From the IMG/VR virus record IMGVR_UViG_3300033069_001465: DNA of 64,000 nt. One strand, written 5' to 3'. The position numbers and the translations under genes are program-made. The notes beneath the pieces were generated by a model. It ran no database searches. It was not told the DNA's origin and was given only the letters and a program-made list of their open reading frames with translations. How positions within the stretch are numbered: the stretch's first letter is position 1; every line of letters starts with the position of its first letter. This document shows positions 45 through 57,425 of the stretch, piece after piece. This DNA is from a virus (lineage: Duplodnaviria > Caudoviricetes).

Positions 45-683
45 ATGAAATATTTAAAAATATTTGAAGCATATTCTATTGAGGACTATCAAAAGGCGTT
101 GAATTCGTTGAAAGATATGGTGAAGAAGAATAAGCCCAATGAAGATATATTAGCTTTTATTAATGTATATTATAGTGATAGTGCTAAAAATCTCAATGAA
201 ATTAGAATTATGCTAGATAGGATAGAAAGAACGTATGCTCATTATAAAAATTATGTATTTTATAACAGAAAGACTAGAAGAATTCGAAAAAGAGGAGGTG
301 GATATGAAGATAAAGATGTATCTGATTATAAACAATTTTATATGTTTCAAGCTGAAAATAAGGCAATTTTAGTTTCATTTTTAGATAATCAAAAGAAAAT
401 ATATGATAAAAATATTAACGAAATAAATGATATTGATACAAAGACAATTCAATTTTTAATTAATAAATTATTTGAAATATTAGAATGGGTTAATGAAACA
501 GGTGTAGAGAAAAATAGAATAAAAACTAGTAGATATGCCGGGGAAACCCCAAAGTCAGACGAAGATATACTAAGAGAAATTGAGAGTCTTAATGATATGG
601 ACTTTGAAAATGAGACTGAGGAGGTTTCAAAAATAATCAGAAGATGTAAAATACAAATAAAAAACGCTATAAACTCAAAATGA
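45..683 (+). CDS. Hypothetical protein with N-terminal MKYLKIFE leader
   Basis: 212-aa ORF; TAATATATA at 32-40; shared leader. Confidence 0.8.
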   Translation: MKYLKIFEAYSIEDYQKALNSLKDMVKKNKPNEDILAFINVYYSDSAKNLNEIRIMLDRIERTYAHYKNYVFYNRKTRRIRKRGGGYEDKDVSDYKQFYMFQAENKAILVSFLDNQKKIYDKNINEINDIDTKTIQFLINKLFEILEWVNETGVEKNRIKTSRYAGETPKSDEDILREIESLNDMDFENETEEVSKIIRRCKIQIKNAINSK

Positions 684-1534
684 AATATCTATTAGAATTA
701 AATGAATTTGACTCTGAAAATAGAATTGATCAAATATGTAAGCGTATTGAGAATACCGGTTATATCTCCAGATCTACTGAAAAAGAACTTGGTGAATTAA
801 CAGGAATACATGATATTGTTGATCAAATTTATCGTAAGGTGAATGAGATTTATAAGTTCTATAATAAATTTTCAAAAGATTATATAGATGATATATTACT
901 TGAGTTTTTTGAATCAAGTCCCTATACATATAAAATAAATATAGGGGTCTTTTTACCGAAGAAACATTATTATTCAACTCATGGGGATATTAATACCAAT
1001 TTTTTATTTGGTGATAATTATGATAATGCTAATGATAAGCAACAATATTTATTATCATCGTTACTATCATTTGTTAAAAAAATAAACAAAAAGTCACATA
1101 GATTGGCGGATAAACAAAGAGAGGAAAGAAAGAATAACAAATTTTGGATATCACAACCAAGAAGCAGAAAAGTTCATGTTACAAATTATTTTAAGTATTT
1201 CTTATTAATGAAGCCTCTTGTAAATATTGATATTTATCACCGAGAATGGGCAAGTTATTATCAAAATGATACTGAGTATTGTTTAGCAATGAATGGATGG
1301 AATCAAAAGCAGTTTTCTGCAAATTGGGTAGATGATTCAATAGCGAGTAAAATAAAAAGAAGATTTGACTATATACATCCATGTAGTGTTGAATCTGCTT
1401 ATCACGATTCATATACTTACCGTCAATGGTATGATGGTGAAATTGAAGATGAAGATGGTAATATCATAAGAAATACTGTTAGGAATCCAAATCCCATATT
1501 ATTACATGGTATGCTAAATATCAAATTCAACTAA
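680..1534 (+). CDS. Hypothetical protein, leader-bearing (MKYLLELNEF), with IDDILLEF module
   Basis: 284-aa ORF, ATGA overlap with upstream gene. Confidence 0.8.
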   Translation: MKYLLELNEFDSENRIDQICKRIENTGYISRSTEKELGELTGIHDIVDQIYRKVNEIYKFYNKFSKDYIDDILLEFFESSPYTYKINIGVFLPKKHYYSTHGDINTNFLFGDNYDNANDKQQYLLSSLLSFVKKINKKSHRLADKQREERKNNKFWISQPRSRKVHVTNYFKYFLLMKPLVNIDIYHREWASYYQNDTEYCLAMNGWNQKQFSANWVDDSIASKIKRRFDYIHPCSVESAYHDSYTYRQWYDGEIEDEDGNIIRNTVRNPNPILLHGMLNIKFN

Positions 1535-1540
1535 TTTTCT

Positions 1541-1548
1541 TATATTTG
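1541..1548 (+). promoter_or_regulatory. Bacteroidota-type -7 promoter element TATATTTG
   Basis: Matches TAnnTTTG, 4 nt before ATG 1553. Confidence 0.6.
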
Positions 1549-1552
1549 TAAT

Positions 1553-1864
1553 ATGAGTTTAAATTTACTATCTGAACTAATAGGGAAAGAAGTCAGTTAT
1601 ATACCGAATGATGACACTGTGGTTATAAATAGATGGAATAAAAATTATACTACGATTGATAAAGAAGGAACTGATGAATTAATCAGAGTATTTATCTTGA
1701 CTTTAGATAGTGGATGCATTGAGACCAATGAAGAAAATTATGTATTAGACTACGAATATATCTCCAAAAACAAAAAAAAGATACTTGATGATATAGATAT
1801 GTCAAAGGTAAGCTTGCTATTATCACAACTAAGAGATATTAAATTGAGAAAAATATTATCTTAA
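1553..1864 (+). CDS. Hypothetical protein with C-terminal RDIKLRKIL tag
   Basis: 103-aa ORF. Confidence 0.75.
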   Translation: MSLNLLSELIGKEVSYIPNDDTVVINRWNKNYTTIDKEGTDELIRVFILTLDSGCIETNEENYVLDYEYISKNKKKILDDIDMSKVSLLLSQLRDIKLRKILS

Positions 1865-2784: not shown

Positions 2785-2796
2785 ATATGTATATAT

Positions 2797-3066
2797 TTAT
2801 AAAGAATATCCAGGATATGTATTTCTAATCTTATTGAAAATTTCTTCTGCATTCTCACCCATTTCATCAAATCGGTCATCAATTTTACTATCAAATTCTT
2901 TTTCATACCAATCTAATAATTCATTAGCTGCCCAGAAACATTCTGCAGGTGCCTCGCTTCCCCAGCTATAAAATAGTGTTTTTAAGGCTTTGATAAAATC
3001 TTCTTTATATTCACACCCCGTTTCTTTTCCAGAATATCTTTCATTAAACTTATTTAAATGTTTCAT
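2797..3066 (-). CDS. Small leader-bearing hypothetical protein
   Basis: MKHLNKFNE start; TAATATATA (reverse strand) at 3071-3079. Confidence 0.75.
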   Translation of the reverse strand: MKHLNKFNERYSGKETGCEYKEDFIKALKTLFYSWGSEAPAECFWAANELLDWYEKEFDSKIDDRFDEMGENAEEIFNKIRNTYPGYSL

Positions 3067-3090
3067 TAATTATATATTAAGATGTAAATA

Positions 3091-5387: not shown

Positions 5388-5927
5388 TTAATTATAATAG
5401 TATCCTTCAGCACCATGTGGCATTCCAGGCATTCTAATATTTAGATTTGTTCCCCTTTCAATAATATCACAAATAAAGTTGAGTAGTCCATCAATTTGAT
5501 CACATTTGTAAAATGTTATTGGTGTAGTCCTATCTGGTATATAATAGCTATATTTAACATAGAACCATCCATCCTCATTTTGGGTAATATTCATATCTAC
5601 ATCAAAGAATACATATTTGTTATCTATAATTCCTTTCTTTTTATATTTTAGAATAATAGTATCAAATATATCAGAATTATCATAATCTCCATCATTTAAG
5701 TCATCATAGTTTAGTAATTTACCATGTCTATCCATAACTACATTTATACATTTTGTTTCACTATCTTCTATAAAGTCTGTATTTTTATAATCATTAAGTA
5801 TTTCTGATATTCTACTAGTATATTTCTTTGAGAAGTCCTGTAGACTTTTATAACTTTCCTTATATTCATTATAATCTATCTCTGTATATAATTTAGAGTG
5901 ATCTTCAAATAATTTTAAGTATTTCAT
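5388..5927 (-). CDS. Leader-bearing KCDQ-family protein
   Basis: MKYLKLFE; DGWFYV...FYKCDQIDGL. Confidence 0.75.
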   Translation of the reverse strand: MKYLKLFEDHSKLYTEIDYNEYKESYKSLQDFSKKYTSRISEILNDYKNTDFIEDSETKCINVVMDRHGKLLNYDDLNDGDYDNSDIFDTIILKYKKKGIIDNKYVFFDVDMNITQNEDGWFYVKYSYYIPDRTTPITFYKCDQIDGLLNFICDIIERGTNLNIRMPGMPHGAEGYYYN

Positions 5928-5928
5928 A

Positions 5929-6390
5929 TTAGTCGTATGTAGGATCTATCTCCCAGTTAAAAGTATAACCAGGTATTATTCGATGTATTATATCATAATA
6001 CACATCATATGAAAAATCTGCCCAATTTGTATTATCTCTATCCCTTTTATAGAATTCGGCTCCAACCGATCCGTCCGGAGATAATGCCCAATTCATATCT
6101 GAAATATTTTTACTTATCATACTGAATCCAATAATAAATATCGATCCGTCATTAAACACTAAGTGGATACCTATTGTCGGCTTCCATTCTGTATGTGGAG
6201 AATCCATACCAAAAAATTTATAATATTTATTAGCCCATTCTCTATTTAGTGGACCACCAGCCCATTGATTTACACGTTTATGCATGTATCCAATAGATAC
6301 TTCAACATTATCTAAATGCAAGTATAAAAAATCAGATAGGGATAATTTTTCTGAAATTGCCTCATTATATTGTAAAAATGTTTTAATCAT
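5929..6390 (-). CDS. Hypothetical protein, leader variant MIKTFLQYNE
   Basis: 153-aa ORF in tightly packed operon. Confidence 0.7.
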   Translation of the reverse strand: MIKTFLQYNEAISEKLSLSDFLYLHLDNVEVSIGYMHKRVNQWAGGPLNREWANKYYKFFGMDSPHTEWKPTIGIHLVFNDGSIFIIGFSMISKNISDMNWALSPDGSVGAEFYKRDRDNTNWADFSYDVYYDIIHRIIPGYTFNWEIDPTYD

Positions 6391-7474
6391 TTAGATAAGT
6401 GAGTTCAATTTTTTGAGGTGTTGCATGATGCCTCTGCTTAGCCTCTTTAAATACCTTCTCAAACTTCTCTGTATAATTACTTAGTGACTTAGGCATTCTA
6501 TCTATTATTCCGGTTGACATATAAGCCTGTATCTCATCATTTAAAACCGATTCATTATACCCAATCCCAATAATTACATCAGAGATTGCTTTTTTCTCTT
6601 CCTTTGGTAATGAATTGACTAAATTATTCATCTTTGTTCTATATTCTTTATCTGTATAATAAAATCCATGTGCTAATTCATGGTCTAATAAATCACTATT
6701 AACATCTAGTTCATCTACACCAATTATGTAATATTTATCATTTTCTCTTTCTTTAATCTCAGTGATAATAGATACCATTAGATCGTCATATCTATTTGGA
6801 TCATCAACTTCCTCCATACACTTCTCAATAGATTCTGAAGGTATATTAAATCCACTCCAATCACTTCCATAAGTGAAAACATCTTTTTCACCAGTTGGAC
6901 CTTCGGAGCTTTTATACCATTGAATATATCTATCCCATGTAAATTTATTTCCTTGAAATTCATTTGATGATGATTCATAATATTCTTGTAATCTTAAGAA
7001 GGTAAATGCTCTTAGTTGTTGTGATTCAATAACAACACAATAGATACCATCAGCGACTTTATATAATTCTACTTGTTTAAATAGATTTTCTAAATTGTAA
7101 GTTAGTAATGCTTCTTTAATAGTTTTTGATTCTGGATTATTTGATATTCCGATTTTAAAATTATCAGGAGCATTCGGATAATCATGAATTATAGTATACA
7201 TGTCAAATTTTTCTAACCTTAGTTTAAATTTTTCTAATTCTTTTAGAAAATTAGAAACATTATCTATCCCACATTTAACATCAATGACATAATCACCATG
7301 TATATTTTTGAAAATATTATAATATTTATCAATCGACTCATCAATTGTCTTATTCATGATTTCCTCGGAAGTCATTTCAGGTATATCGAATTTATCTACT
7401 ATTTCTAAGAATAAATCTGATATATCTTCTGGATTAAATGCATTAAAATTTTCAAATAGTTTTAAATATTTCAT
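6383..7474 (-). CDS. Leader-bearing two-domain protein with C-terminal HExxH zincin-like domain
   Basis: MKYLKLFENF; ISDLFLEIVD module; LLDHELAHG...DEIQAY. Confidence 0.6.
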   Translation of the reverse strand: MKYLKLFENFNAFNPEDISDLFLEIVDKFDIPEMTSEEIMNKTIDESIDKYYNIFKNIHGDYVIDVKCGIDNVSNFLKELEKFKLRLEKFDMYTIIHDYPNAPDNFKIGISNNPESKTIKEALLTYNLENLFKQVELYKVADGIYCVVIESQQLRAFTFLRLQEYYESSSNEFQGNKFTWDRYIQWYKSSEGPTGEKDVFTYGSDWSGFNIPSESIEKCMEEVDDPNRYDDLMVSIITEIKERENDKYYIIGVDELDVNSDLLDHELAHGFYYTDKEYRTKMNNLVNSLPKEEKKAISDVIIGIGYNESVLNDEIQAYMSTGIIDRMPKSLSNYTEKFEKVFKEAKQRHHATPQKIELTYLND

Positions 7475-7764
7475 ATTGATTGTAAAAAATTTTGGACCTC
7501 TATGAATTCGTCAGCTATATAATATTCTGCATCATGTTCAGTAAATATTATAAACCAACTATCACATAACTTACTTATTAAAATATTGTCTTTGATATAT
7601 ATTGAGCTCTTAGCTAATTTTATGTCTGAAAATTTTGAACATATCCATTTTATCTCGTTTTCAGATAGCTTTTCTCTTTTAAAAAAGTTCAATTTATCTG
7701 TAGCTTCTTCTTGGCTACATCTCTTTGGCATTCTATTTGATTCAAATAACTTTAGATATTTCAT
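7471..7764 (-). CDS. Leader-bearing degenerate KCDQ-family protein
   Basis: MKYLKLFES; DSWFII...YYIADE. Confidence 0.7.
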   Translation of the reverse strand: MKYLKLFESNRMPKRCSQEEATDKLNFFKREKLSENEIKWICSKFSDIKLAKSSIYIKDNILISKLCDSWFIIFTEHDAEYYIADEFIEVQNFLQSI

Positions 7765-8099
7765 AGATTATTTATTTTTTGTAATAATCTATCAATTTCG
7801 GCATTTTTAGGAATTTCTTTACATATCCAATTAATAACATCAACTGGATTCTCACCCTCTACTATCCTATGCATGAACTCTTTATATAAATCATCATCCT
7901 CATCAATTACTTCCTTTATTTCTATTTTAAGAGCATTAAAACAAGACCAAAAGCAATCATCCTCACCCATTAATCCATTAGTAACAATTTCTGAAAATTG
8001 TTTTTCTAATCGTGTTTGCTTGCCAAAATGTTGTTCGACTCTGCTTAATGGTTCATCATCATATGGATTAAATGCTTCAAATAGTTTTAAATATTTCAT
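7761..8099 (-). CDS. Leader-bearing hypothetical protein
   Basis: MKYLKLFEAF; 4-nt overlaps with neighbours. Confidence 0.75.
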   Translation of the reverse strand: MKYLKLFEAFNPYDDEPLSRVEQHFGKQTRLEKQFSEIVTNGLMGEDDCFWSCFNALKIEIKEVIDEDDDLYKEFMHRIVEGENPVDVINWICKEIPKNAEIDRLLQKINNL

Positions 8100-8470
8100 T
8101 CTATAATTTCAATTTTTATTAATATTTTGTTACCTCTCTCCACTATTCCATATAATTTAGACTTTAAACTAAATCTATTTGCAACCTTATTAACATCATT
8201 AAGAAATTCACTAACAACATTAGTATCACTATCTATGATAGATGAAACTATATATCCAGGTTTTTTTCTATAAATATAAGAGTCGGGATATCCAGAATTA
8301 TTAACACCATTTTTAATATGATATGATCTACTAACACCATCATCTTTTCTATAAACTGCATTAGTTTTTTTCACAGATACTTTCCATTTACTATCTACTA
8401 GTTCAAGAAAGTAGTCTTCTATTAAATCAACTGGAGATACCTCATTCTCAAATGTTTTAATATATTTCAT
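8096..8470 (-). CDS. Leader-bearing protein with IEDYFLELVD module
   Basis: MKYIKTFENE. Confidence 0.75.
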   Translation of the reverse strand: MKYIKTFENEVSPVDLIEDYFLELVDSKWKVSVKKTNAVYRKDDGVSRSYHIKNGVNNSGYPDSYIYRKKPGYIVSSIIDSDTNVVSEFLNDVNKVANRFSLKSKLYGIVERGNKILIKIEIIE

Positions 8471-8815
8471 TTATCTCATTAATTTTCCATCTATTATTAG
8501 ATATAATTCAAGAGTTTCTAAATAAAATTCTTGGCCATCTATTATACATCTATCTGAATTTCCATGTTCTGTCTCTTCAACATTATTAGGGGCAACAATA
8601 TTACCTGGATAATTTGGATGTTTATTTATTGAAAAGTTTCTATCAAAGTCTTCCTTATTAGTGAAATTAAAAACTTGACAATATTGATCTTCTTTTGAAA
8701 TATAGAATACGGTCCATCCTTTATAATGTTTTAACTTCTCAACAGTTATGTCAAAGAAATCAAAGCTCTCATATCTTAAATTAGATATACCTTCATTAAA
8801 TCTTCTAATTTTCAT
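8471..8815 (-). CDS. Leader-bearing hypothetical protein
   Basis: MKIRRFNE. Confidence 0.75.
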   Translation of the reverse strand: MKIRRFNEGISNLRYESFDFFDITVEKLKHYKGWTVFYISKEDQYCQVFNFTNKEDFDRNFSINKHPNYPGNIVAPNNVEETEHGNSDRCIIDGQEFYLETLELYLIIDGKLMR

Positions 8816-9238
8816 TTATATAAAAAATTTTAAGTTTCCAGATTTTGGTGGAAATTCATCAAAATCAATTTCGTCATATCCACCTTTATTCCATAATAAT
8901 GTGAATACTTCAGGATGTGTATGTCCATGTTCATTTCTTGTTATTCTTAGTGCATATGTTCCTTCAACTTGTGGATCTGGATAGACTTCTATTTTATTTG
9001 ATGGATTATTTACATTAACATACATTTCTAATTCCTTAATAGCTTCTTTTGGAAGTATTTTATCGGTATACTTGGACCAAGGAGCCTCAGCACCATCATT
9101 GCCTAAATAGTTGTTATATTTACCATCACATTCGGAACAGCAACAATCTTGGAACTTTTTCTCTGGTGTAAATTTTTTATAACACCACTTACACTCTTTT
9201 TCTTCCTCAAAATTTTCAAATAGTTTAATGTGTCTCAT
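8816..9238 (-). CDS. Leader-bearing protein with N-terminal zinc finger
   Basis: MRHIKLFENF; CKWC...CCCSEC. Confidence 0.7.
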   Translation of the reverse strand: MRHIKLFENFEEEKECKWCYKKFTPEKKFQDCCCSECDGKYNNYLGNDGAEAPWSKYTDKILPKEAIKELEMYVNVNNPSNKIEVYPDPQVEGTYALRITRNEHGHTHPEVFTLLWNKGGYDEIDFDEFPPKSGNLKFFI

Positions 9239-9239
9239 A

Positions 9240-9842
9240 TTATTTTCTAAATTTATTTGGAAATAAGTTTCTTAACTCATGTCCTTGTGGTATATCTGAT
9301 TTTCTAATTCCAAATATCTTTTCTTCTGGGCAGGTGTCTTTTCCATCTATATAAAAATTATTATTACAAGCCCATGTTTCTACGCTTCTATTTAATACCT
9401 GACCTACTAAAAATGGAAATCTAACATGAACATGATTAGGCTTCTCAATTCTTGTTATTCTTCCATCTGGAGTTTTATATACATTAAAAGCTTGGGTTTG
9501 ATTCCTTTTACTAACAAATTTAACTAATATTTCATTGGATTTGGATTCCATTAAATATCCCTCATCATCACCCTTCTCTAATATTTGTGCATCTAATGCT
9601 GCTGAGAGAGGTATTATATGTCCTTCTCCCTCATCTCCCATATATCTTTGACCTTCATCTTCGGATACAACATATCCATCTGATGTTAAAGTAACTACAT
9701 AAAGTGTTCCATACTTTTTAAAATGAACTAAATCACCAGGCCCAATATCTTCATTCTCATCAGTTTCCCAATCAGATTCGCGCATTTTACCATCCTTATC
9801 TACATATAACGCGAACTCTTTAAATAATTTAATATTTTTCAT
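9240..9842 (-). CDS. Leader-bearing hypothetical protein, probably two domains
   Basis: MKNIKLFKEF; TTATATATA upstream at 9847-9855. Confidence 0.75.
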   Translation of the reverse strand: MKNIKLFKEFALYVDKDGKMRESDWETDENEDIGPGDLVHFKKYGTLYVVTLTSDGYVVSEDEGQRYMGDEGEGHIIPLSAALDAQILEKGDDEGYLMESKSNEILVKFVSKRNQTQAFNVYKTPDGRITRIEKPNHVHVRFPFLVGQVLNRSVETWACNNNFYIDGKDTCPEEKIFGIRKSDIPQGHELRNLFPNKFRK

Positions 9843-9853
9843 AATGTATATAT

Positions 9854-9884
9854 AAAAAAAAGAGTCAGAAAAATCTGACTCTTT
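9854..9884 (-). terminator. Intrinsic terminator
   Basis: AAAGAGTCAGA-AAAA-TCTGACTCTTT hairpin with T-run on the minus strand, at the stop of 9883-10038. Confidence 0.75.
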
Positions 9885-11537: not shown

Positions 11538-11855
11538 CTATTCATCCTTTCCATCATCTGGTTCTACGTAGTACTCTAACCAAGATTCTCTCTCATCGTT
11601 ATATACTTGATCAGCTTCGTCACGATCCTCAATTTCATCTTCTTCCATTATCTCATCCACGGTTCTTAATCCGTGTAATCCTTCATAACTTTCATATTCC
11701 TCAATCGCAGCATAATAAGCTTCTTTTTCGGCCTGATCCTTTGGTCCTGTAAATGTTCTAATGTATTTGGCATTTCCAAATCCACCACCTAAACCCGCAT
11801 ATATTTTCCATTTTCTAATCTCAGAAAATTCTTCGAATAATTTAATTTTTTTCAT
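11538..11855 (-). CDS. Leader-bearing acidic hypothetical protein
   Basis: MKKIKLFEEF. Confidence 0.75.
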   Translation of the reverse strand: MKKIKLFEEFSEIRKWKIYAGLGGGFGNAKYIRTFTGPKDQAEKEAYYAAIEEYESYEGLHGLRTVDEIMEEDEIEDRDEADQVYNDERESWLEYYVEPDDGKDE

Positions 11856-11863: not shown

Positions 11864-12556
11864 TTAATTTTTATACTTCCATATAAATCCATAAGCTTGC
11901 TTATATACTCCATTACAAACTTGTTTAATTGTCTTTCTGTCGAAATTTAGTTCCCTCTTAATTCTTGATACAGAGTCCCACTCTTTTATGAAGTTACCAT
12001 TCATATCAAATTGATATAATGGCCTTTTAATTTTGTTTTTTATAGTACTTAGTTTTTCTATAATTTCTATATTAGAAAATGATTTTTTAACAGCATTTGA
12101 CATTTTTTCCTTAGATTCATTCGTATGTTTTTTATCATAAAATGGATTTTTGTCACCAGTAAACATATCTCTTAGTTTTTTCTTAGTCTCCTCTTTTAAA
12201 CATTTACCAATTCTACTTTTTGATATTTTTTCCTTTACAGAATCTAATAAAGCTGGATTAGAATCTCCACCTGCTGTTATATTAGTAATATTACCAATTT
12301 CCCTATATTTTTTAATATACTCAACCTCTAATAAGAGAGACTCTTCATATGTTAGATTATCAACCAAGATTTCTATTATTGGCTTACAATTATCATTTGT
12401 TAGTTTATTTATCCAATTTGCTTTATGTGTATTTTGACTTTTGGAAGAATTGATATGTTGAGTAAGTCTATACCTCAAAGGTTTACATGTTATACCAATA
12501 TATCTTATTTCTAAGGTATATGGACATCTTAGACAATAAAGCTTGTTATTTCTCAT
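11864..12556 (-). CDS. GIY-YIG homing endonuclease with NUMOD3/NUMOD1-like DNA-binding repeats
   Basis: LYCL...RYIGIT...R..QH; NPFYDKKHTNESKEKMS; YQFDMNGNFIKEWDS. Confidence 0.85.
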   Translation of the reverse strand: MRNNKLYCLRCPYTLEIRYIGITCKPLRYRLTQHINSSKSQNTHKANWINKLTNDNCKPIIEILVDNLTYEESLLLEVEYIKKYREIGNITNITAGGDSNPALLDSVKEKISKSRIGKCLKEETKKKLRDMFTGDKNPFYDKKHTNESKEKMSNAVKKSFSNIEIIEKLSTIKNKIKRPLYQFDMNGNFIKEWDSVSRIKRELNFDRKTIKQVCNGVYKQAYGFIWKYKN

Positions 12557-12570: not shown

Positions 12571-13128
12571 TTATTTAGCTATTATTTCCATCCATTTTGC
12601 ATCCTCACCATATAGCTTACCTTCTCTTATCTTTACATCTTCAATTTCAAAAAAATTAGAAATGATCTCTTTCCATTCACTTGGAGTTAATATTATCTTA
12701 TTTGTTTTAATATTATCATTTTGAATTTTAACACTCATCAATAATTTTTTACCTATTCTTCTAATCTCCCTAAAGATTTCATTTAATTCCTCTTTTGTAA
12801 AATAGTGTAATCCTAATCTTGAATATACTAAATCAAATTCATTATCACTAAAAGGAAATTTCTTTTTAGTATCATGTTTAATACAATTTAAACCTTTGTC
12901 TATAGCATTTTTTATATACCCATCATCCAAATCAGTGCATGTTACCTTATATCCTTTTTTTTGTAGATATAATGAGTCTTCCGCATTTCCGCAAGCAATT
13001 TCTAATATAGATGATCCCGGATAAGATATGTTATCAATTACATTCATAAGTCCCTCATCTACATTATTATGAATATTTAGTAGAGAGGATATTGCCTCAA
13101 ATGTTTTATAGTTTTTAATATATCTCAT
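12571..13128 (-). CDS. Class I SAM-dependent methyltransferase, leader-bearing
   Basis: ILEIACGNAED, FPFSDNEFDLVYS; MRYIKNYKTFE. Confidence 0.8.
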   Translation of the reverse strand: MRYIKNYKTFEAISSLLNIHNNVDEGLMNVIDNISYPGSSILEIACGNAEDSLYLQKKGYKVTCTDLDDGYIKNAIDKGLNCIKHDTKKKFPFSDNEFDLVYSRLGLHYFTKEELNEIFREIRRIGKKLLMSVKIQNDNIKTNKIILTPSEWKEIISNFFEIEDVKIREGKLYGEDAKWMEIIAK

Positions 13129-13359: not shown

Positions 13360-14691
13360 TTAATTTAAAAATTCAATTCTAACTATTGATTTAGACAGTA
13401 TATCTCCAAATAAATCTTGATCCATTATCTTAATAAGTATATTACAATTAATGTGTCTAGCGAATTTTCTAAAAAGATAGTCCATCGTATCAATTGTATA
13501 TCCTCTTATATCCAAGTTACCTTTGGCTCTCCATTTTGGTTGTAATATTTCTATTTTTAAATACGTAACATTTTCTTTTGATGTATTAATTGTTGGTGAT
13601 TCTATCTTTTTTTGATGACTATCAAATTTGTTGATTTTCACACTATTAATATAGAGATAGTCTAAATATATATTAGATCGACCTCTCCATTGACGATGTA
13701 ATTCATCTTGTTCCGATTCTACTATATTAATATCTCCGTCATCTAAAAATTCAATAAAATAGTCCTCTACCTCATCAGGTGACATTGCGCTCTCACGTAT
13801 TCTTAAATCTACCACTCCTTCATCTTCAAGTAATTCTATTAATCCATCAAATTGATCACACTTATAGTATAATTTTGTATTTTTTGTAATATTCTCTCTT
13901 TCAACTAAAAACCATTCATCATTTAATTTAAATATTCTGAAAAATATCATGTAAAACCCTACAATATCACTACCTATTTTAGTCCTAATTTCTATCTTAT
14001 AAGATGAATGAATTATTAATTTAGACCAATCCTTTTTAAGGACTTTTTCTATTTGATCTATTTCTGACCCAAAACGTTCTAAAGCATTTACATCCTTGAC
14101 CATGGATCCGAATTCATTATTATCTATTTGATGATATAATGTATTAAAAGATGCGTTCTCATTTAATGATTCTAATTTTTCTTTTATCCTTTTAACACTG
14201 TCATAAAACTTATTTACTGTATAAGACATTCCATGTTCGGTTGGCGTCAAATCTCTATTAATTGTATCAAGATGTATTCCATTTGGAGCTACTTTAGGAA
14301 TAGTTTTATCATTTCTAATGTCACCTATATTTGAATCCAATGATTGAGCAATGCTTTTGAGTATACCTATTTCATAATACTTATTTATATCACTTTGATG
14401 ACCTTTATTAAACCAATAATCTGAACCTATTCCAAAAAATGGATACCACTTTCCTGCCGCAACATCTTTTTTACCAGCATGACCAGATGATAAATAAAAT
14501 GGAATTCTTATTCCATTTATATCAAATAAAACAATTTTTCTATCTGCATAATCAATGATTTTAGATTTACCCTTGATTCTATTTTTGGTATAGTGACCAT
14601 TTGAATCTTTTTCATAAGTTTCATATGGTATTTCTACCCTAATAGCATTAATCTTAGATTCAAATAAACTAAACTCTCTTATGTGTTTCAT
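13360..14691 (-). CDS. Leader-bearing mosaic protein (unique domain + KCDQ + EDYFIE modules)
   Basis: Start reassigned to MKHIREFSLFES (ATGA overlap); DEWFLV...YYKCDQFDGL; EVEDYFIEFLD. Confidence 0.75.
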   Translation of the reverse strand: MKHIREFSLFESKINAIRVEIPYETYEKDSNGHYTKNRIKGKSKIIDYADRKIVLFDINGIRIPFYLSSGHAGKKDVAAGKWYPFFGIGSDYWFNKGHQSDINKYYEIGILKSIAQSLDSNIGDIRNDKTIPKVAPNGIHLDTINRDLTPTEHGMSYTVNKFYDSVKRIKEKLESLNENASFNTLYHQIDNNEFGSMVKDVNALERFGSEIDQIEKVLKKDWSKLIIHSSYKIEIRTKIGSDIVGFYMIFFRIFKLNDEWFLVERENITKNTKLYYKCDQFDGLIELLEDEGVVDLRIRESAMSPDEVEDYFIEFLDDGDINIVESEQDELHRQWRGRSNIYLDYLYINSVKINKFDSHQKKIESPTINTSKENVTYLKIEILQPKWRAKGNLDIRGYTIDTMDYLFRKFARHINCNILIKIMDQDLFGDILSKSIVRIEFLN

Positions 14692-15137
14692 TTGTTTGGC
14701 ACCCATGGTAGTAAACCTTCTACTAATTTTTTTAATAGATTTATTAACCCATCTATTTGGTCACACTTGTAGTATTCAAATGTATAATCATCTATTTTAT
14801 AAAATGTGGATCTTAACTCTTCATCGGTTGGTGATTTTGTAACCATTACTAAAAACCATTCATCATCAAACTTATTAATAGATATTTGAACCCCAAGATA
14901 TTTTAGAAATATAACATCACTTTTAAAGATATTTCTAATTGATTCGGGAACAATATTTTGCACCTCTTTTATCTCTTTATCTTTAAAAAAGACACTTTTA
15001 GATCTTGAAAATACATCTTGATCATCTGAATCATCTGAATCATCTAAATCAAACATATCATTATATTCATCTACACTTATTTTTTGATATAGATCATTAA
15101 TACTTTCAAATGTTTTATATTTTTTAATGTAATTCAT
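14688..15137 (-). CDS. Leader-bearing KCDQ-family protein
   Basis: MNYIKKYKTFES; DEWFLV...YYKCDQIDGL. Confidence 0.75.
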   Translation of the reverse strand: MNYIKKYKTFESINDLYQKISVDEYNDMFDLDDSDDSDDQDVFSRSKSVFFKDKEIKEVQNIVPESIRNIFKSDVIFLKYLGVQISINKFDDEWFLVMVTKSPTDEELRSTFYKIDDYTFEYYKCDQIDGLINLLKKLVEGLLPWVPNK

Positions 15138-18873: not shown

Positions 18874-18920
18874 AATTCATATATATTAAAATATAAATCT
18901 CAAAGTAAAGTAACCAAACT

Positions 18921-18929
18921 TAATATATA
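18921..18929 (+). promoter_or_regulatory. TAATATATA putative phage late-promoter motif (representative copy)
   Basis: Same 9-mer precedes more than 12 transcription-unit starts on both strands. Confidence 0.6.
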
Positions 18930-35243: not shown

Positions 35244-35261
35244 ATATTTATATATTAATAT

Positions 35262-38058: not shown

Positions 38059-38084
38059 AAGGGGAGAAATTTCTCCCCTTTTTT
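38059..38084 (+). terminator. Intrinsic terminator of dnaK
   Basis: AAGGGGAGAAATTTCTCCCCTT followed by T-run. Confidence 0.8.
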
Positions 38085-41470: not shown

Positions 41471-41472
41471 AT

Positions 41473-42906: not shown

Positions 42907-42975
42907 ATTATCATTTTTATTTTTATTATATATTAATTTTTTCAATTACGAATATGATGATATAATATATAAGTC

Positions 42976-44490: not shown

Positions 44491-45951
44491 TTAATTGTCT
44501 TCCTCATTTTCAATTGGATTTCTAAAAAACATTTCAGGATCCATTTTCTTAATCCAGTTTCTTGCTAACAATAATCTTTTTGTAGAGTCTTTTATCCAAG
44601 ATTTTATTAATTCATATTTATCTAATCTATTAAGTAGTGTTTCATAGCTTTCAATATTAACATATCTATCAGCTATTTCTTCTTTAGTTAATTTTTTTAA
44701 ATCATCTGCTTTAACTAGCTCCATAACAATAGCAAAATCTTTATGTCTTGAATACTTAATGGCAAAATCTCTCTTACTTCTATTCATCTTCACAAACTCT
44801 GCATATAATTTATCTACATCATGTGATTTTTCAGCAATTGCCTTCTTAACTATATCTACCAACTTATAGATTCTATCACGAGCTTCTTTTTCATCTTCTG
44901 GAATTTGTCCAAGAATGTCATCAATCTTATCATCAAGAATATATCCTAAGATAATATTCTCTTTGTATAAGTCTTCAGTTAATAATCCATGTCTTTCACA
45001 ATACCAAGGTGTCTTTAACTTAAAGAAAAAGTCTTTACCATTTTCATCAACTGCTTGGACAACATATCCTTCTTTATCAACTTCTGTTCCAGTTAGTTCA
45101 ATTAAACTATCTAAGTCAACGAAATCATCTTTAAATGGAGCAATTTTAATTGATCCTAGCTTGTCTACATGATTTTTAATGTCTATGTGTTTACCAGTCT
45201 TATTATCTCTTAATCTTAATAAAATTAACTCCTCTTTTGAATATTTCAATACAACACGATTATGTGGAGCAACATATTCAAAAATTGGAACAATATCATT
45301 TTCCATGCACCAATCAACAAATTGATTAACATCTGAATTTTCATTATAGATATTTGATATGCCTTTAGCCTGCTCACTTTCAAAAGACATTTTTGATTTA
45401 CCGTATACTTTACCATTAGGTAATTGAATAAATGATGCAATTGAACCATCCTCTTTATTATTAACGAATCTTATTTTATAGTTTTTAACTATAGAATACA
45501 TGGATTCTGGAACTTGATTTAAGTTAAAGAATTTCTCAAGTAGAATAAATCTTTTATATAATGATCCATCAGTATTGAATACGAATGTCAATCCTCTCAT
45601 TTCATAAGCGGTGATATTTGGTTTTCCCTCAACTGGGGTAACAAAGTCTTTATATTGAGCTAGACGATAATTGAATAAACTAACTGAATATCCATCTAAT
45701 GTTAATTTTGTTTCATAGAAAGGAGATTCTTCATCAGCACACATTTCAACACAATCTTCATAAGAAGGAATATATTTTCCTTGAGGTACAGGTCCCACGT
45801 TAATAGTTGCATTTTCAAAATACTTTCGAGCAGCCTCTGTCTTACGAGGAAATAAATCTCGACCCTTTAACTTTTCAGCCACTGATTCTAATAATTCCTT
45901 TTCGGATTTAAAATCACCATATTTTAATATTTTCTTATTCATAAATTTCAA
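44491..45951 (-). CDS. RNA ligase, T4 Rnl1-like
   Basis: EMRGLTF, KFFNLNQ, motif I KEDGS, FEY, EGYV, KLK. Confidence 0.85.
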   Translation of the reverse strand: MKFMNKKILKYGDFKSEKELLESVAEKLKGRDLFPRKTEAARKYFENATINVGPVPQGKYIPSYEDCVEMCADEESPFYETKLTLDGYSVSLFNYRLAQYKDFVTPVEGKPNITAYEMRGLTFVFNTDGSLYKRFILLEKFFNLNQVPESMYSIVKNYKIRFVNNKEDGSIASFIQLPNGKVYGKSKMSFESEQAKGISNIYNENSDVNQFVDWCMENDIVPIFEYVAPHNRVVLKYSKEELILLRLRDNKTGKHIDIKNHVDKLGSIKIAPFKDDFVDLDSLIELTGTEVDKEGYVVQAVDENGKDFFFKLKTPWYCERHGLLTEDLYKENIILGYILDDKIDDILGQIPEDEKEARDRIYKLVDIVKKAIAEKSHDVDKLYAEFVKMNRSKRDFAIKYSRHKDFAIVMELVKADDLKKLTKEEIADRYVNIESYETLLNRLDKYELIKSWIKDSTKRLLLARNWIKKMDPEMFFRNPIENEEDN

Positions 45952-49267: not shown

Positions 49268-49741
49268 TTAGTTTAGTAGTTTATCTAATTGTAACTCTCT
49301 TCTTTTCATTTTTAATTTATTATAATACACATTATCGAAAAAGAATGCATTTTCCCTAATTTCTTCGAAATATGCCTTGCCATCAGTTGGTATATGATTG
49401 ATATGCTCAATTGGTAGTATATATTTTAGTTTATATATCATACCCTCATTTAATATTCTTTCAACAAAATCATGATCTATTTTAGCAAGATGATCAAAAT
49501 CATCTTCATGTAGAATAGGATCTTTTTCATTTCTGTTAATAAAGTAGGCAAACATTTCATTATCTATAAAGATATAGTCCTCCCATATAAATGGACGGTA
49601 CGTATTATTAAGCCACAATACATCCATAGCATATACATACTTTATAAACGTATCAATATCTTCACAACATTCTCTATGTTTAATAGTAATTAATCTAAAT
49701 AGAGCATATAGTTTATTCCGTAATGATTCTTCACTAAGCAT
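49268..49741 (-). CDS. Hypothetical protein with C-terminal RELQLDKLL tag
   Basis: 157-aa ORF. Confidence 0.7.
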   Translation of the reverse strand: MLSEESLRNKLYALFRLITIKHRECCEDIDTFIKYVYAMDVLWLNNTYRPFIWEDYIFIDNEMFAYFINRNEKDPILHEDDFDHLAKIDHDFVERILNEGMIYKLKYILPIEHINHIPTDGKAYFEEIRENAFFFDNVYYNKLKMKRRELQLDKLLN

Positions 49742-50201
49742 ATTTTATAAGATATTTAATAACTTTATCCCAATTTTCAAATGGTGATTTACCAAATTGA
49801 ATTTGTTCTCCTTTGAATTTATCCCATAGAATATCATCTATTAAATAGTCACCCATTAGTATATTTTTATTTGGTGATATAATAAGCTTTTGACAAAAGT
49901 CTAAATCAAAATGCCGTTCAATCCATATTCTCTTTTCAGTATAACAAAGTGGATTTTTATATGATGGACTTGTTAAAATATAAACGTCAAATATCTCTCT
50001 TAATTTATTTACTGCCTCAATTGCTCCTTGTAAAGGTTTTAAGCTAAGAAAAAATCCCTCTTTAGATTGTGGATACTTTACATCTGGATTTAATTGACTC
50101 ATTTCCTTATAGTGAGTTGTATAATCACAAATAGTATCATCCATATCGATATAGACAATTGGTTTAGTATTAACACTTTCGTTAAATTTTCTAATTTTCA
50201 T
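49734..50201 (-). CDS. 5'(3')-deoxyribonucleotidase (NT5C-type HAD), leader-bearing
   Basis: YIDMDDTICD, ILTSP, EKRIW, GDYLIDD; MKIRKFNES. Confidence 0.85.
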   Translation of the reverse strand: MKIRKFNESVNTKPIVYIDMDDTICDYTTHYKEMSQLNPDVKYPQSKEGFFLSLKPLQGAIEAVNKLREIFDVYILTSPSYKNPLCYTEKRIWIERHFDLDFCQKLIISPNKNILMGDYLIDDILWDKFKGEQIQFGKSPFENWDKVIKYLIKYA

Positions 50202-50205: not shown

Positions 50206-50853
50206 CTATTTATTACTATTTATTTTCGCTTTTTTCCAATTTCTAGTCCAATGGTCGCTAGTTTGAACATGGCCCGATCTAACCCATTTCATAACATTAG
50301 ATGAGAAATCATCGTTGTGAAACATTTCTGCATTTCTAACTACAACTCCCTCAATTGGTCCACCTAATTTTGAAGGTTGACTTACTAATGATTCAGTAAT
50401 CTTTTGTAATTCTTTTTCAGAATTAACAATTCCCTTAAATAAAACCGGAACAGTTGGTAGGTCCAATAGATAAGCATACTCTTCAACTTCATCCCAGGAA
50501 ATCCATATGTTATTATCTCTAACTCCAAATATATAAAAGTAAGATTCTAAATTAGAATATTCAATACTATGTATGCCTTCCATATTTTCACCAAATAAAA
50601 AAACATCTTCTGATAAATCAGAGGAAATTCTTTGTTGAATTTGTCTAACTTCCTTTGACCAATTTGATGTAGTATAAGCCCCATGTGACCGAGCATATAC
50701 TCCGCCTTTGGTCATTCCTGTGTTTTCACCGTCTAACTTTTCAGTAATTACAATATCTATTCCGATTAATGACTCAGCAGAATCTGCAATTCTATCATCG
50801 TTAGTAGATCCTGGGCTAAAAAATAAATGTGATGTTCTTGGATATTTTGACAT
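50206..50853 (-). CDS. RNA ligase-family nucleotidyltransferase (Rnl2-like adenylation domain)
   Basis: KYPRTSH, TEKLDGEN, FGE, EGVVVR, KWVR; TATATTTGT upstream at 50870-50878. Confidence 0.8.
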   Translation of the reverse strand: MSKYPRTSHLFFSPGSTNDDRIADSAESLIGIDIVITEKLDGENTGMTKGGVYARSHGAYTTSNWSKEVRQIQQRISSDLSEDVFLFGENMEGIHSIEYSNLESYFYIFGVRDNNIWISWDEVEEYAYLLDLPTVPVLFKGIVNSEKELQKITESLVSQPSKLGGPIEGVVVRNAEMFHNDDFSSNVMKWVRSGHVQTSDHWTRNWKKAKINSNK

Positions 50854-50898: not shown

Positions 50899-51639
50899 AT
50901 GAAAGGATTTATTTATGGTTTAATTTGTCCAATTAGAAATGAGATTAGATACATCGGATTAACTAAAAAGACACCAGAAAAAAGACTATCCCAACACTTA
51001 ATGGAATCTAAATACTACAAAAGGAAAGGAAAATACCTTAACAAAAAGCATAACTGGTTAAATAAACTTATAGAAATGAATATAGAGAAGGAAATTAAAG
51101 TAGTTGTATTAGAGGAAATTGAATATGGAAATAATATTGATATTTTATCCGAAAGAGAGATTTATTGGATATCAGTGTATAAAAATCTATCTAACTCGAC
51201 AGATGGTGGAGAAGGAGTATTGAACTTAAGTGAAGATGCTAGAAAAAGAATATCAATTACAAATTCAGGTGAAAAAAATGGTATGTATGGAAAAAGAATT
51301 AAAAGAACCAAAGAGCAAAAGAAAAAATTAAGCCTATCATTAAAAAATTCAAATAAGCTTAAAGAATCTAGATCATCAAATGAATACCGAAAAAAGATAT
51401 CTAATTACCGTTCAAAACCTGTCTTCTTGTTAAATGATAAGTTGGAAATTGTAATGGAGTTTAAAAATTCAACAATATGTGCTGATTACTTTGGATTTAC
51501 AAGGGGAAATATTAAAAATGCAATTAGTTCACTAAGGAAGGTGGGAAAATCTATGAAAAATAAATATTGGGTCATTAGAAAAGAAAACTATGAGGAGTCT
51601 ATTAATAAAATAAGAGAAAAAATAAATCTTTATAACTAA
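50899..51639 (+). CDS. GIY-YIG homing endonuclease
   Basis: FIYGL...RYIGLT...RLSQH; N.TDGGEG; NGMYGK. Confidence 0.85.
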   Translation: MKGFIYGLICPIRNEIRYIGLTKKTPEKRLSQHLMESKYYKRKGKYLNKKHNWLNKLIEMNIEKEIKVVVLEEIEYGNNIDILSEREIYWISVYKNLSNSTDGGEGVLNLSEDARKRISITNSGEKNGMYGKRIKRTKEQKKKLSLSLKNSNKLKESRSSNEYRKKISNYRSKPVFLLNDKLEIVMEFKNSTICADYFGFTRGNIKNAISSLRKVGKSMKNKYWVIRKENYEESINKIREKINLYN

Positions 51640-54966: not shown

Positions 54967-55632
54967 TTACTTTCTTTTAGAAATAATTTCATCAATCATA
55001 CCATATCTTTTTGCTTCAGTAGCATTCATCCAATAATCTCTGTCTCCATCTTGAGAAACCTTATCATATGCTTGACCTGTCATTTCAGAAATGATTTCAT
55101 ATAAGTCTTTTTTAAGATTGTTTATTTGTCTAGCATCAATCTCGATATCAGATGCTTGTGCAAATCCAGTGTAACCTAATGGCTGATGTATCATTGTTCT
55201 TGATCTTTTTAAAGCCTTTCTTTTGCCTTTTGTTCCACTACATAATATAAGTGCTGCCATAGAAGCCGCTAATCCTGTGTTAATTGTAATTATATCCGGC
55301 TTAACAAACTCAATTGTATCTAGTAACCCTAGTCCCGAATAAACAGATCCTCCGGGTGAATCAATGTATATTTTAATATCATCATCTCCTATCTGTTCTA
55401 AATAGAGTAGTTGTGCTTTTATTAAATTACAAACGTCTGACTCCATTTCGGTAGATAAAAATATGATTCGACTTTCTACCAGTTTAGAATAAACATCTAC
55501 TATAACTCCATTTATGTTATCATCTATTATATGGTGAGTATTGTTTTGATAGTTATAATAGTCGTCTACTACAAGGCTATTTATTCTATGATGTTTGGTG
55601 AGGTAATTTCTAAAATCTTTTTGATTGTTCAT
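54967..55632 (-). CDS. clpP: ATP-dependent Clp protease proteolytic subunit
   Basis: YIDSPGGSV, AASMAA (Ser), MIHQP (His), DRDYWM (Asp). Confidence 0.95.
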   Translation of the reverse strand: MNNQKDFRNYLTKHHRINSLVVDDYYNYQNNTHHIIDDNINGVIVDVYSKLVESRIIFLSTEMESDVCNLIKAQLLYLEQIGDDDIKIYIDSPGGSVYSGLGLLDTIEFVKPDIITINTGLAASMAALILCSGTKGKRKALKRSRTMIHQPLGYTGFAQASDIEIDARQINNLKKDLYEIISEMTGQAYDKVSQDGDRDYWMNATEAKRYGMIDEIISKRK

Positions 55633-55711
55633 GTAGTATATATATATCTTTTTGAATTTTACAAAATACGAAAATAAAAGTTTAATATATAAAAGAAAAT
55701 AATAAAAAAGT

Positions 55712-56056
55712 ATGAAAACAACAATTGAAATTCATGGTTACCAAATAGTAATTGAAGAATCTGAAGGTAATATATCAGTTAGTGCGTTGAAAGATGACGA
55801 AACTGTTGAGGAATTTACTTTAGAAGGTGAAGAAGGTGAAGAAGTAGAAGGTGAGGAAGGATTACACGCTTTTGGTGATGAAGAAGCTCAAGAGGGTGAC
55901 TTCGATGATGCAGAAGATTTTGAAGGTGAAGAGGGAGAAGTAGGAGAGATGGAAGAACCTTCAGAAGGGGACGAAGATTATGAAGAAGACCTTGAAGATG
56001 TTGAAGAAGAAGGTAAATTAGAATCCTTTAATTCATTCATCCAAAAAAGAAAATAA
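55712..56056 (+). CDS. Highly acidic protein ending in a leader-like motif
   Basis: Glu/Asp-rich; KLESFNSF at C-terminus; TAATATATA 55683-55691. Confidence 0.75.
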   Translation: MKTTIEIHGYQIVIEESEGNISVSALKDDETVEEFTLEGEEGEEVEGEEGLHAFGDEEAQEGDFDDAEDFEGEEGEVGEMEEPSEGDEDYEEDLEDVEEEGKLESFNSFIQKRK

Positions 56057-56063
56057 TTATTAA

Positions 56064-57140
56064 ATGATTAGAAGATATTACGAGTATCTTTTGGAAAGTT
56101 CACCTGGCATAGATCTAAAGTATTTAGCACTAGATTGGGATGATAATATTCTACATATGCCAACCTTTATTCACTTAGACCATCTAGTAGATGGTGAATG
56201 GGTGCATGAGCCTGTTTCCACTGCGAAGTTTGCGACTGTTAGAAATGATAAAGTAAACTGGAGGTACAGAGATGATTCATTTTCCGAATTTAGAGATTTT
56301 GGGCCTAGAGGTGAAACAGCTTTCCTTGAAGACACCATTTCTGCTATAAATAATGGAGATTTTGGACCTAGTTGGGATGCATTTATTGAATATTTATCTC
56401 AAGGCACTATCTTTGCTATAATTACAGCAAGAGGGCATGAACCAAATGCAATTAAAATGGCAGTAGAATATATTATAGATAATATATTAACTGAAAATCA
56501 AAAACATAGTTTATATGCACATTGTTTAAAGTTTGCATATTTATTTGGAGCTGATTATGACTCATATGATAGAATACCAAGAGGACAGCTTAGTAAAACC
56601 AAACTAATTCAAGACTATTTAAATAGTTGTGATTATTATGGAGTTTCCTCTAATTTCTGTATTAAGAAATTTGGATTAGGCGATGCTGGCAATCCAGAAA
56701 AAGGAAAAGAAATGGCAATTAAAGAATTTACTAAACAAGTAAATGAATTTGGTCAAAAAATTGGTGCTAAAAGTGTTTCCCTAGGATTCTCTGATGATGA
56801 TGTTAAAAATGTTAAACACATTGAAAAACTATTTAGAGATGAATTATCATTAAAATATTTAATCAATTATAATATTTATGATACATCCAAAAGAGAAATA
56901 AAAGGTGGGGTTAGAACTAAAATAGATCCTCAAGTAGTAGAATCAACAACATCTTGGGGGAATGGTGCTGGAACTTGGGGAACAGATAGTAGTGTTATTC
57001 CATTCACAAAATGGAACAACATGACTCAAAATCTTTATCCAAATAGCAAAGATTTTTCAAATGATGATTATCATAATCAATTTAAAAATCAGATAGGTCA
57101 ATTAAAAGATCTAACCGTTGTAGATAAAAAAAAAGTATAA
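56064..57140 (+). CDS. HAD-superfamily phosphatase-like protein, leader variant
   Basis: LDWDDNIL, IITARGH, K, GFSDDD; MIRRYYEYLLES. Confidence 0.7.
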   Translation: MIRRYYEYLLESSPGIDLKYLALDWDDNILHMPTFIHLDHLVDGEWVHEPVSTAKFATVRNDKVNWRYRDDSFSEFRDFGPRGETAFLEDTISAINNGDFGPSWDAFIEYLSQGTIFAIITARGHEPNAIKMAVEYIIDNILTENQKHSLYAHCLKFAYLFGADYDSYDRIPRGQLSKTKLIQDYLNSCDYYGVSSNFCIKKFGLGDAGNPEKGKEMAIKEFTKQVNEFGQKIGAKSVSLGFSDDDVKNVKHIEKLFRDELSLKYLINYNIYDTSKREIKGGVRTKIDPQVVESTTSWGNGAGTWGTDSSVIPFTKWNNMTQNLYPNSKDFSNDDYHNQFKNQIGQLKDLTVVDKKKV

Positions 57141-57143
57141 GAG

Positions 57144-57425
57144 ATGAGAAACATTCTAAAATTCGAAGGTTTCGTAAAAGAAAATTACGAAATAAAAGAG
57201 GAACTAAACGTGGATGAAACAAAAGTTTCACATTCTTCTTTAGATGATTTAATTAAACAACTTTCTGAATTACAGAATGTTTATGATATAAATGATTTAA
57301 AATCAATGAATGATACACAATTAAAGAATTTATATAGTGAGGTTTTAAATGCTAAAGAAGAAGATTCTAAATCCGAAATTGAACCAACTTCTGAGTTAGA
57401 ATATGAGTCTAAAAATTGGAAATAA
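57144..57425 (+). CDS. Small leader-bearing acidic protein
   Basis: MRNILKFEGFVKE. Confidence 0.7.
   Translation: MRNILKFEGFVKENYEIKEELNVDETKVSHSSLDDLIKQLSELQNVYDINDLKSMNDTQLKNLYSEVLNAKEEDSKSEIEPTSELEYESKNWK

Follow-up and report, generated by a model that had tools for sequence, protein, structure and literature searches.

The window analysed here, a 64,000-nucleotide stretch of the Caudoviricetes record IMGVR_UViG_3300033069_001465, is low in G+C (25-36%) and densely coding, with simple open reading frame (ORF) calling yielding 79 non-overlapping ORFs of at least 50 amino acids (aa), and many of its proteins begin with one and the same kind of short peptide, exemplified by MKYLKLFE, which we refer to as the tag. 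A clear M-K-x-[IL]-K-x-F-E-type N-terminus opens 23 of the 79 genes and weaker variants open about 6 more, in agreement with the original prediction that about 27 proteins share such a leader. A 14-position hidden Markov model (HMM), trained solely on the tags of the related huge phage LR756502.1 (hereafter LR756502) and applied at a threshold of 11 bits, retrieved 26 of the window's 813 open stretches that begin with ATG, these being the 23 gene starts, 2 alternative starts of those same genes and a single internal Met (35363) that falls within a GIY-YIG-like gene at 35262-36059. The strict pattern M[KR].[ILV][KRN].[FY][ENK] matched 14 times across six frames, with 13 matches representing called gene starts and the 14th an in-frame second ATG six codons inside a gene; without the Met, the pattern occurred 16 times, just 2 of them inside proteins (20,769 aa). 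Several sub-forms can be told apart, with either the seven-residue spacing to Phe-Glu, a spacing one residue shorter or three residues longer, or a Leu-Leu-Glu-Ser ending.

Sequence comparison places this DNA among uncultured huge phages, with the window's DnaK (36179-38044, + strand) being 78% identical to that of LR756502.1 (642 kb) and 63% identical to that of LR756501.1 (735 kb). Our comparison set consisted of the complete LR756502.1, 400 kb each of LR756501.1 and LR756508.1 (a 484-kb huge phage), and phage T4. Because LR756502 carries BLAST-level homologues of the T4 portal gp20, gp23, DNA polymerase, helicase, gp46/47, RNA ligase and others, we regard the lineage of the window as T4-related. 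A TAnnTTTG box, known as the -7 box of Bacteroidota promoters, precedes some window genes (~1530-1552 and 61545-61565, ahead of the untagged 1553-1864 and 61299-61544), and its position before untagged genes hints at early promoters read by the host polymerase and at a host among the Bacteroidota. No Shine-Dalgarno sequences were evident upstream of the window genes inspected. The lineage is one of huge T4-related phages, probably of Bacteroidota.

Reading along the window, the tagged genes begin with two + strand ORFans without Pfam or PHROG families, one at 45-683 (212 aa, HMM score 13.2 bits), where the promoter-like sequence TAATATATA ends ~4 nt before the ATG, and one at 680-1534 (284 aa, 11.3 bits) that carries a Leu-Glu-Leu-Asn-Glu variant. 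On the - strand follow ORFans at 1861-2784 (307 aa, 12.8 bits; short form M-K-I-R-N-F-S-E, HExxH at residue 91) and 2797-3066 (89 aa, 13.6 bits), each with a promoter-like [AT]ATATATA motif, 5 nt (2790-2797) and 4 nt (3071-3078) upstream, respectively. An array at 5388-9842, also on the - strand, starts with the 200-aa ORFan 9240-9842 (14.5 bits; motif at 9847-9854, 4 nt upstream) and runs through a small Cys-rich protein with a faint HNH PHROG match (8816-9238, 140 aa, 18.1 bits), ORFans at 8471-8815 (114 aa, short tag form, 12.2 bits), 8096-8470 (124 aa, 16.6 bits), 7761-8099 (112 aa, 15.9 bits) and 7471-7764 (97 aa, 12.3 bits), a 363-aa protein with HExxH at residue 265 (6383-7474, 16.9 bits), a doubtful member with a weak variant (5929-6390, 153 aa, 7.8 bits) and, as last gene, an ORFan without families at 5388-5927 (179 aa, 13.7 bits). 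The LR756502 orthologue of the 363-aa protein (221232-222002, 45% identity) is likewise tagged and lies two genes upstream of the portal gene.

Further tagged genes on the - strand are an ORFan at 11538-11855 (105 aa, 17.5 bits), an S-adenosylmethionine-dependent methyltransferase with the long form at 12571-13128 (185 aa, 14.4 bits; Methyltransf_25, E = 2e-14; the LR756502 orthologue is tagged too), ORFans at 13360-14691 (443 aa from the tag Met, with an in-frame ATG five codons upstream, to 14706; 17.5 bits) and 14688-15137 (149 aa, long tag form, 14.2 bits), a P-loop ATPase at 17128-18477 (449 aa, 18.6 bits; phrog_1250, E = 8e-39, matches in T4-like phages, tagged LR756502 orthologue) and an ORFan at 18481-18873 (130 aa, 16.9 bits; motif at 18880-18887, 6 nt upstream). 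Residues ~141-415 of the ATPase are homologous to T4 NrdC.10 and are preceded by 140 additional residues that include the tag. Beyond these lie the + strand ORFan 33729-34385 (218 aa, 11.4 bits), the - strand ORFans 34364-34828 (154 aa from the tag Met, with an in-frame ATG six codons upstream, to 34846; 19.0 bits) and 34830-35243 (137 aa, 15.5 bits; motif at 35249-35256, 5 nt upstream), an NT5C-type 5'(3')-deoxyribonucleotidase (49734-50201, - strand, 155 aa, 13.4 bits; NT5C, E = 4e-13) and the + strand ORFan 57144-57425 (93 aa, 12.2 bits).

Six genes carry weak or shifted variants, the array member 5929-6390 being one of them. The 327-aa protein at 15384-16367 (- strand, 9.4 bits) has a weak tag followed by eight Lys codons, a run that could be a slippery homopolymer or encode a highly basic linker. 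The + strand gene 33269-33739 (1.2 bits), with a tag-like start at internal Met 33281, is doubtful and is included as it was counted in the original prediction. The other three are a T4 Rnl1/gp63-type RNA ligase (44491-45951, - strand, 9.8 bits; RNA_lig_T4_1, E = 5e-20; phrog_562), a 358-aa protein with an aromatic-x-x-aromatic-L-L-E-S variant (56064-57140, + strand, 6.2 bits), and a 649-aa DnaJ-type zinc-finger protein (57470-59419, - strand) in which a tag-like peptide occupies residues 12-22, behind a Cys/His-rich start that is conserved in its LR756502 orthologue. For all three of these the LR756502 orthologue has a clearer tag, that of 56064-57140 resembling the capsid-targeting sequence (CTS) of T4. 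The RNA ligase, a second RNA-ligase-type gene (50206-50853, - strand) and the NT5C gene lie within 7 kb and may form an RNA-repair or nucleotide module.

Behind the common start the proteins are dissimilar, as had been claimed, with more than 90% of tagged bodies matching no Pfam or PHROG family and with the families that were found differing in fold: methyltransferase, NT5C/HAD nucleotidase, P-loop ATPase and RNA ligase in the window, and additionally lysozyme, NUDIX, SET, GNAT, HNH and DHH in LR756502. Because the searches of the tagged ORFans gave almost no matches, the function of most of this presumed cargo cannot be read. As for the enzymes that the original prediction listed under the leader, the methyltransferase, the NT5C nucleotidase and the P-loop ATPase stand, and the HExxH motifs of two proteins are present, but without family support. 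The leader is, as predicted, missing from the gp47-like phosphoesterase, DnaK, the ClpP-type protease, the glycosyltransferases, and the beta-helix and collagen fibre proteins, the last two being a Pel9A-like beta-helix/PKD protein (1139 aa) and a collagen-repeat protein (490 aa) at 38084-42945 (- strand, 34-36% G+C) that are probably fibre or depolymerase genes. It is also missing from three genes (11864-12556, -; 35262-36059, -; 50899-51639, +) whose N-termini look GIY-YIG-like by eye, which suggests homing-endonuclease genes, no family search having been run on them.

Upstream of the tagged genes, the [AT]ATATATA motif offers a link to late expression. It occurs upstream of 51% of tagged versus 18% of untagged LR756502 genes (Fisher p 1e-16), and it ends 4-6 nt before the ATG of tagged genes and 4-7 nt before that of many small genes, which suggests near-leaderless transcripts. 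Before large, presumably structural genes the motif stands ~17-31 nt from the start, including 23-25 nt for the two largest in the window (18922-18929 and 33228-33235), and in LR756502 its distance from the portal, protease and capsid genes is 19-29 nt, while replication genes mostly lack it. We consider it probably a phage late promoter comparable to T4's TATAAATA.

This proximity of promoter-like motif and start codon raises the question of whether the shared N-terminus reflects the DNA or the peptide, as a constraint on transcription or translation start, for instance in leaderless late mRNAs of a host without Shine-Dalgarno pairing, could in principle produce a recurrent 5' end. Motifs ending 4-6 nt before tagged ATGs, so that many transcripts may be leaderless, and A/T-rich N-terminal codons fit such an explanation. 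Codon usage does not: within 80 strict LR756502 tags synonymous codons occur at ordinary ratios, equal to those of untagged N-termini (Lys5 is AAA in 33 and AAG in 27, Glu9 is GAA in 17 and GAG in 14), four different Leu codons and two Ile codons are found at position 4, and AAA, AAG and AGA at position 5. Exchanges between Leu and Ile, Lys and Arg, or Phe and Tyr need several base changes and still keep the residue class, and initiation is not known to depend on the Phe/Tyr or the Glu position. The DNA upstream of tagged genes is not conserved, many tagged genes overlap the preceding gene's stop codon, about half of them lack such a promoter and belong to operons in which one gene's stop codon overlaps the next gene's start, and untagged genes with an equally close promoter have unrelated N-termini. 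The tag is conserved as amino acids, not as DNA; variable upstream DNA and ordinary codon use rule out conservation at the DNA level, the outcome that the original prediction had named as telling against a portable tag, and we regard a start-site constraint as highly improbable.

The tag also behaves as a detachable, portable and unstructured N-terminal add-on. After 15 residues were trimmed off, 65 of 80 tagged LR756502 bodies had no paralogue at E<1e-4, which rules out paralogy as the explanation of the common start. Orthologues of the window and LR756502 are both tagged despite drift in the tag sequence. Among homologues of the NT5C protein, a tag followed by a variable linker (roughly 6-19 residues) is present in 11 of the 21 closest (P0001-P0009 and P0021; 63-98% identity), plus P0039, the tagged homologues being metagenomic and their tags of differing sub-forms, and no tag was seen among roughly 105 other listed homologues, named bacterial ones included. 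Most untagged NT5C homologues begin 2-6 residues before the first strand, a few having other N-terminal extensions. An AlphaFold model of the window's NT5C protein (mean predicted local distance difference test score, pLDDT, 95) shows residues 1-14, which comprise the tag and its linker, as coil, the first ten with pLDDT 60, and the fold starting at residue 15.

These same observations bear on whether the shared start might be a functionless relic, left by one ancestor or by recombination at a common 5' end. Tagged genes do often stand in tandem arrays (5388-9842 here, nine in a row in LR756502), and the conserved flanks of the T-even internal-protein locus may promote gene exchange, both of which would suit a relic. 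The bodies, however, have unrelated folds and mostly no detectable paralogy among them, and the tag has been kept through orthologue drift and across phages of 20-45% GC. The linker behind it varies freely. Together this points to purifying selection on the peptide itself, and a functionless relic seems very doubtful indeed.

Extending the scan to relatives, as the original prediction had proposed, revealed how widely the tag is used. In LR756502, 156 of 976 ORFs (16%) score at least 11 bits in a bimodal distribution, with tagged genes spread across the genome and dense arrays near one end. LR756501 has 15 of 546 such ORFs in its first 400 kb and LR756508 has 0 of 562 in the same extent. The DNA pattern of one tag form was found in at least 117 IMG/VR stretches, and in 80 of these loci, ranging in G+C from 20% to 45%, 195 of 992 ORFs were tagged.

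We then evaluated the tag against the N-terminal packaging signal of T4. The internal proteins of T4 carry an N-terminal CTS of ~10 residues that directs them to the scaffold core and that the protease gp21 cuts off after a Glu, and foreign proteins fused to the T4 CTS get packaged. When the HMM built from LR756502 tags was run on 280 T4 ORFs, IpI ranked 2 and two genes that start with the published CTS ranked 4 and 6, and by our own count the probability that the three internal proteins of T4 would all rank among the first 6 by chance is ~5e-6. The T4 internal proteins scored 7.4-8.8 bits versus 11-20 bits for huge-phage tags and none of the 280 T4 ORFs reached 11 bits, so the huge-phage tags and the T4 CTS are alike but not identical; the tags of LR756502 and LR756501 include forms that differ from the T4 CTS at few positions. 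The N-terminus of T4 gp61.1 also closely resembles the T4 CTS and outscores the internal proteins.

The likeness extends to a predicted cleavage site. A hydrophobic-x-Glu ending at residues 6-15 is present in 87% of the tags in the window and in 78% of those in LR756502 versus 25-27% of untagged starts, and gp21-family proteases all cut after Glu, so that the tags usually appear to contain a site of the kind cut by this family of head proteases. Taken by themselves, this site, its position and the gp21-type protease present in relatives would also suit a tag that is a pro-peptide only, one that a Glu-specific phage protease removes in order to activate or time proteins, with neither head retention nor injection. 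We consider that quite improbable, as 8-13 unstructured residues lying outside the fold would hardly be expected to keep a protein inactive. Proteases of the gp21 family are, moreover, described as working within proheads, and the basic and aromatic residues conserved ahead of the cut site point to an additional role in docking.

Further evidence comes from the head machinery of the relatives. LR756502 encodes a T4-like portal (E = 3e-25), a gp23-like capsid protein and, between their genes, a 699-residue protein with a match to phrog_207, a family of head maturation proteases (E = 5e-28). The second half of this protease is a run of 11 tandem copies of a 14-residue unit whose core reads Y-S-E-Y-I-A-E-N, and proteases fused to 11-13 Y-S-E-Y-[IL]-A-E-N repeats occur in LR756502, LR756501, LR756504 and three tag-bearing IMG/VR genomes (436-482 kb), these last three having been picked up via the tag. 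An 8-residue motif, aromatic-x-x-aromatic-[ILV]-x-Glu plus the next residue, occurs 46 times in LR756502 versus 7.3 expected, with 19 copies at N-termini and 10 in the protease-scaffold protein. We interpret the repeats as a putative scaffold fused to the protease, one that would mirror both the tags and the T4 CTS. The more distant LR756508, with 0 tagged ORFs in its first 400 kb, has a protease ORF without such repeats; its head protease gene (156324-159698 of LR756508.1) appears to carry an intein-like insertion of ~400 residues directly after the conserved G-E-L-D-H-P-D. The N-terminal region of the relatives' capsid protein contains a conserved Q-[IM]-N-E-N whose aligned counterpart in the T4 gp23 propeptide is K-I-F-E-N. 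The T4 gp23 maturation site (after Glu65) is not conserved in the relative's capsid protein, and cleavage more probably takes place at another conserved Glu site, further upstream. No match to the head protease was found in the record nearest to the window (G001, 185 kb), which lacks the tagged-array region.

Because the relatives encode a portal of T4 type along with a gp23-type capsid protein and a gp21-type protease, the tag is probably homologous to T4's system and not just analogous to it. Our best explanation, to which we give a probability of roughly 0.55, takes the shared N-terminus for a capsid-targeting and cleavage tag of T4 type, enormously expanded in huge T4-related phages. Tagged genes would be made late, many via near-leaderless transcripts from the same promoter-like motif that serves the head genes, and their 8-13-residue tag (basic/hydrophobic/basic/aromatic followed by hydrophobic-x-Glu) would dock each protein onto a prohead scaffold core built of repeats that bear the same motif. 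The scaffold-fused gp21-type head protease would then cut after the Glu, the tag would leave, and the soluble, mostly acidic cargo would stay in the head and probably be released into the host together with the DNA for take-over or counter-defence. We infer docking, cleavage, head retention and injection from this combination of features. The original prediction of a T4-analogous loading tag is thus borne out as regards the portable peptide, its likeness to the T4 CTS, the Glu site and the T4-type machinery in relatives, with loading into the head and delivery at infection following by inference.

The composition of the tagged set is in keeping with soluble cargo, with membrane proteins making up 1.3% of tagged proteins versus 10.6% of the rest, and those with known domains (lysozyme, RNA ligase, NUDIX, DHH, SET, GNAT, methyltransferase, nucleotidase) are plausible take-over or counter-defence enzymes. 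These phages may load their heads with, and inject, at least a hundred different proteins. A more specific proposal, in which Bacteroidota huge phages load more than 100 soluble proteins (about one sixth of the proteome) by means of interchangeable CTS-like tags that imitate the 14-residue protease-scaffold repeat and are clipped after Glu, is tentative and in our estimate falls somewhat short of even odds.

A huge tagged set that includes ordinary enzymes would suit a cytoplasmic system better than capsid cargo, and this is among the points that favour reading the tag as an address for other phage machinery, be it a DnaK/DnaJ-like/ClpP-type set, a modifying enzyme or an intracellular phage compartment. 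The window encodes DnaK, the DnaJ-type zinc-finger protein and a ClpP-type protease, and the basic-hydrophobic-basic stretch has the general character of Hsp70-binding and some ClpX N-terminal signals. The ClpP-type protease (54967-55632, - strand, phrog_94), DnaK and the zinc-finger protein 57470-59419 together resemble a phage-borne protein quality-control set. Across genomes, however, the tag does not co-occur with DnaK and ClpP genes (in a small sample with partial genomes), as LR756508 has DnaK yet no tags in its first 400 kb, and the tag-bearing LR756501 yielded no ClpP homologue in its first 400 kb. With respect to a modifying enzyme, LR756502 has one radical-SAM gene, which was not seen adjoining a cluster of tagged genes. 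Such an address would also leave unexplained the T4-CTS likeness, the Glu-ending site and the motif repeats in the protease-scaffold protein, and we judge it unlikely on the whole.

Several observations weigh against a capsid-targeting and cleavage tag. The phages concerned are all uncultured and known from sequence alone, and the evidence on head machinery comes entirely from relatives (whose DnaK is 63-78% identical) and not from the window's own genome. There is no precedent for the scale, which in one relative amounts to roughly 150 proteins, ~16% of the ORFs. Tagged proteins have a median isoelectric point (pI) of 5.1, compared to 5.9 for the rest, which makes the cargo bodies acidic, whereas T4 internal proteins are described as highly basic. 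One tagged LR756502 protein has a PQ-loop membrane domain, and the tag-like peptide of 57470-59419 is not at the extreme N-terminus. The RNA ligase, the lysozyme and the NrdC.10-like ATPase are tagged, and their T4 homologues are not known to be packaged in the head. The top T4 match of the profile, gp61.1 (54 aa, 18966-19130 of T4), is a hypothetical protein that is not known as packaged. At the putative cut site P3 is often Phe, Tyr or Thr, as opposed to Leu or Ile in T4, and the Pfam gp21 model (S77) scores the LR756502 protease at 22.7 bits with a cut-off of 27. Finally, no CTS-like motif was found in the T4 scaffold, so the idea that the tag mimics a scaffold has no precedent there and draws all of its evidence from the huge phages.

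Among known systems, the T4 CTS (on IPI, IPII, IPIII and Alt, removed by gp21) is the closest. It, too, is a short peptide that heads otherwise unrelated proteins, its basic and aromatic residues leading up to hydrophobic-x-Glu; portal, capsid protein and protease are of T4 type in our relatives as well, and the cargo loci evolve fast here as they do in T-even phages. The system described here differs in number, with ~27 tagged genes in 64 kb and ~150 per relative genome in contrast to a handful in T4, in its interchangeable sub-forms and mostly acidic cargo that includes enzymes, in a scaffold that appears fused to the protease with tandem motif repeats, in a promoter-like motif that almost touches the ATG, and in that all of this is drawn from genome sequences. 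The propeptides of phiKZ, 201phi2-1 and SPN3US, which are processed by a gp21-related protease at (S/A/G)-x-Glu, share cleavage after Glu, many head-carried and ejected proteins, and some paralogues with conserved N-termini. Theirs, however, are mostly longer than 100 residues with no common short tag, the P3 residue is small where ours is hydrophobic, and 8-19 proteins are processed. Polyvalent proteins and virion effectors (P1 Dar, N4 and T7 injected proteins) similarly deliver pre-made counter-defence or take-over enzymes with the DNA, but do so as giant many-domain fusions or with dedicated partners, whereas here separate small proteins carry a common tag. The encapsulation peptides of bacterial microcompartments and the cargo-loading peptides of encapsulins are also short, portable terminal peptides with a flexible linker that bring unrelated enzymes into a shell; their shells are unrelated or distantly related, and there is neither proteolytic removal nor delivery to another cell. 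In the literature we found no paper linking CTS-like tags to huge phages.

If these proteins are indeed loaded into the head, the virion would carry a large, fast-changing set of enzymes and ORFans that enters the cell at the very onset of infection, an arsenal of pre-made effectors far larger than that known for any other bacterial virus, and this could help explain the large size of these genomes. The tag would then also provide a sequence rule by which thousands of candidate take-over and counter-defence proteins could be picked out of metagenomes, and a family of short natural tags for capsid loading, a use to which the T4 CTS has already been put with foreign proteins. Even if the destination lies elsewhere, one address peptide on ~16% of a viral proteome would represent an undescribed sorting system.

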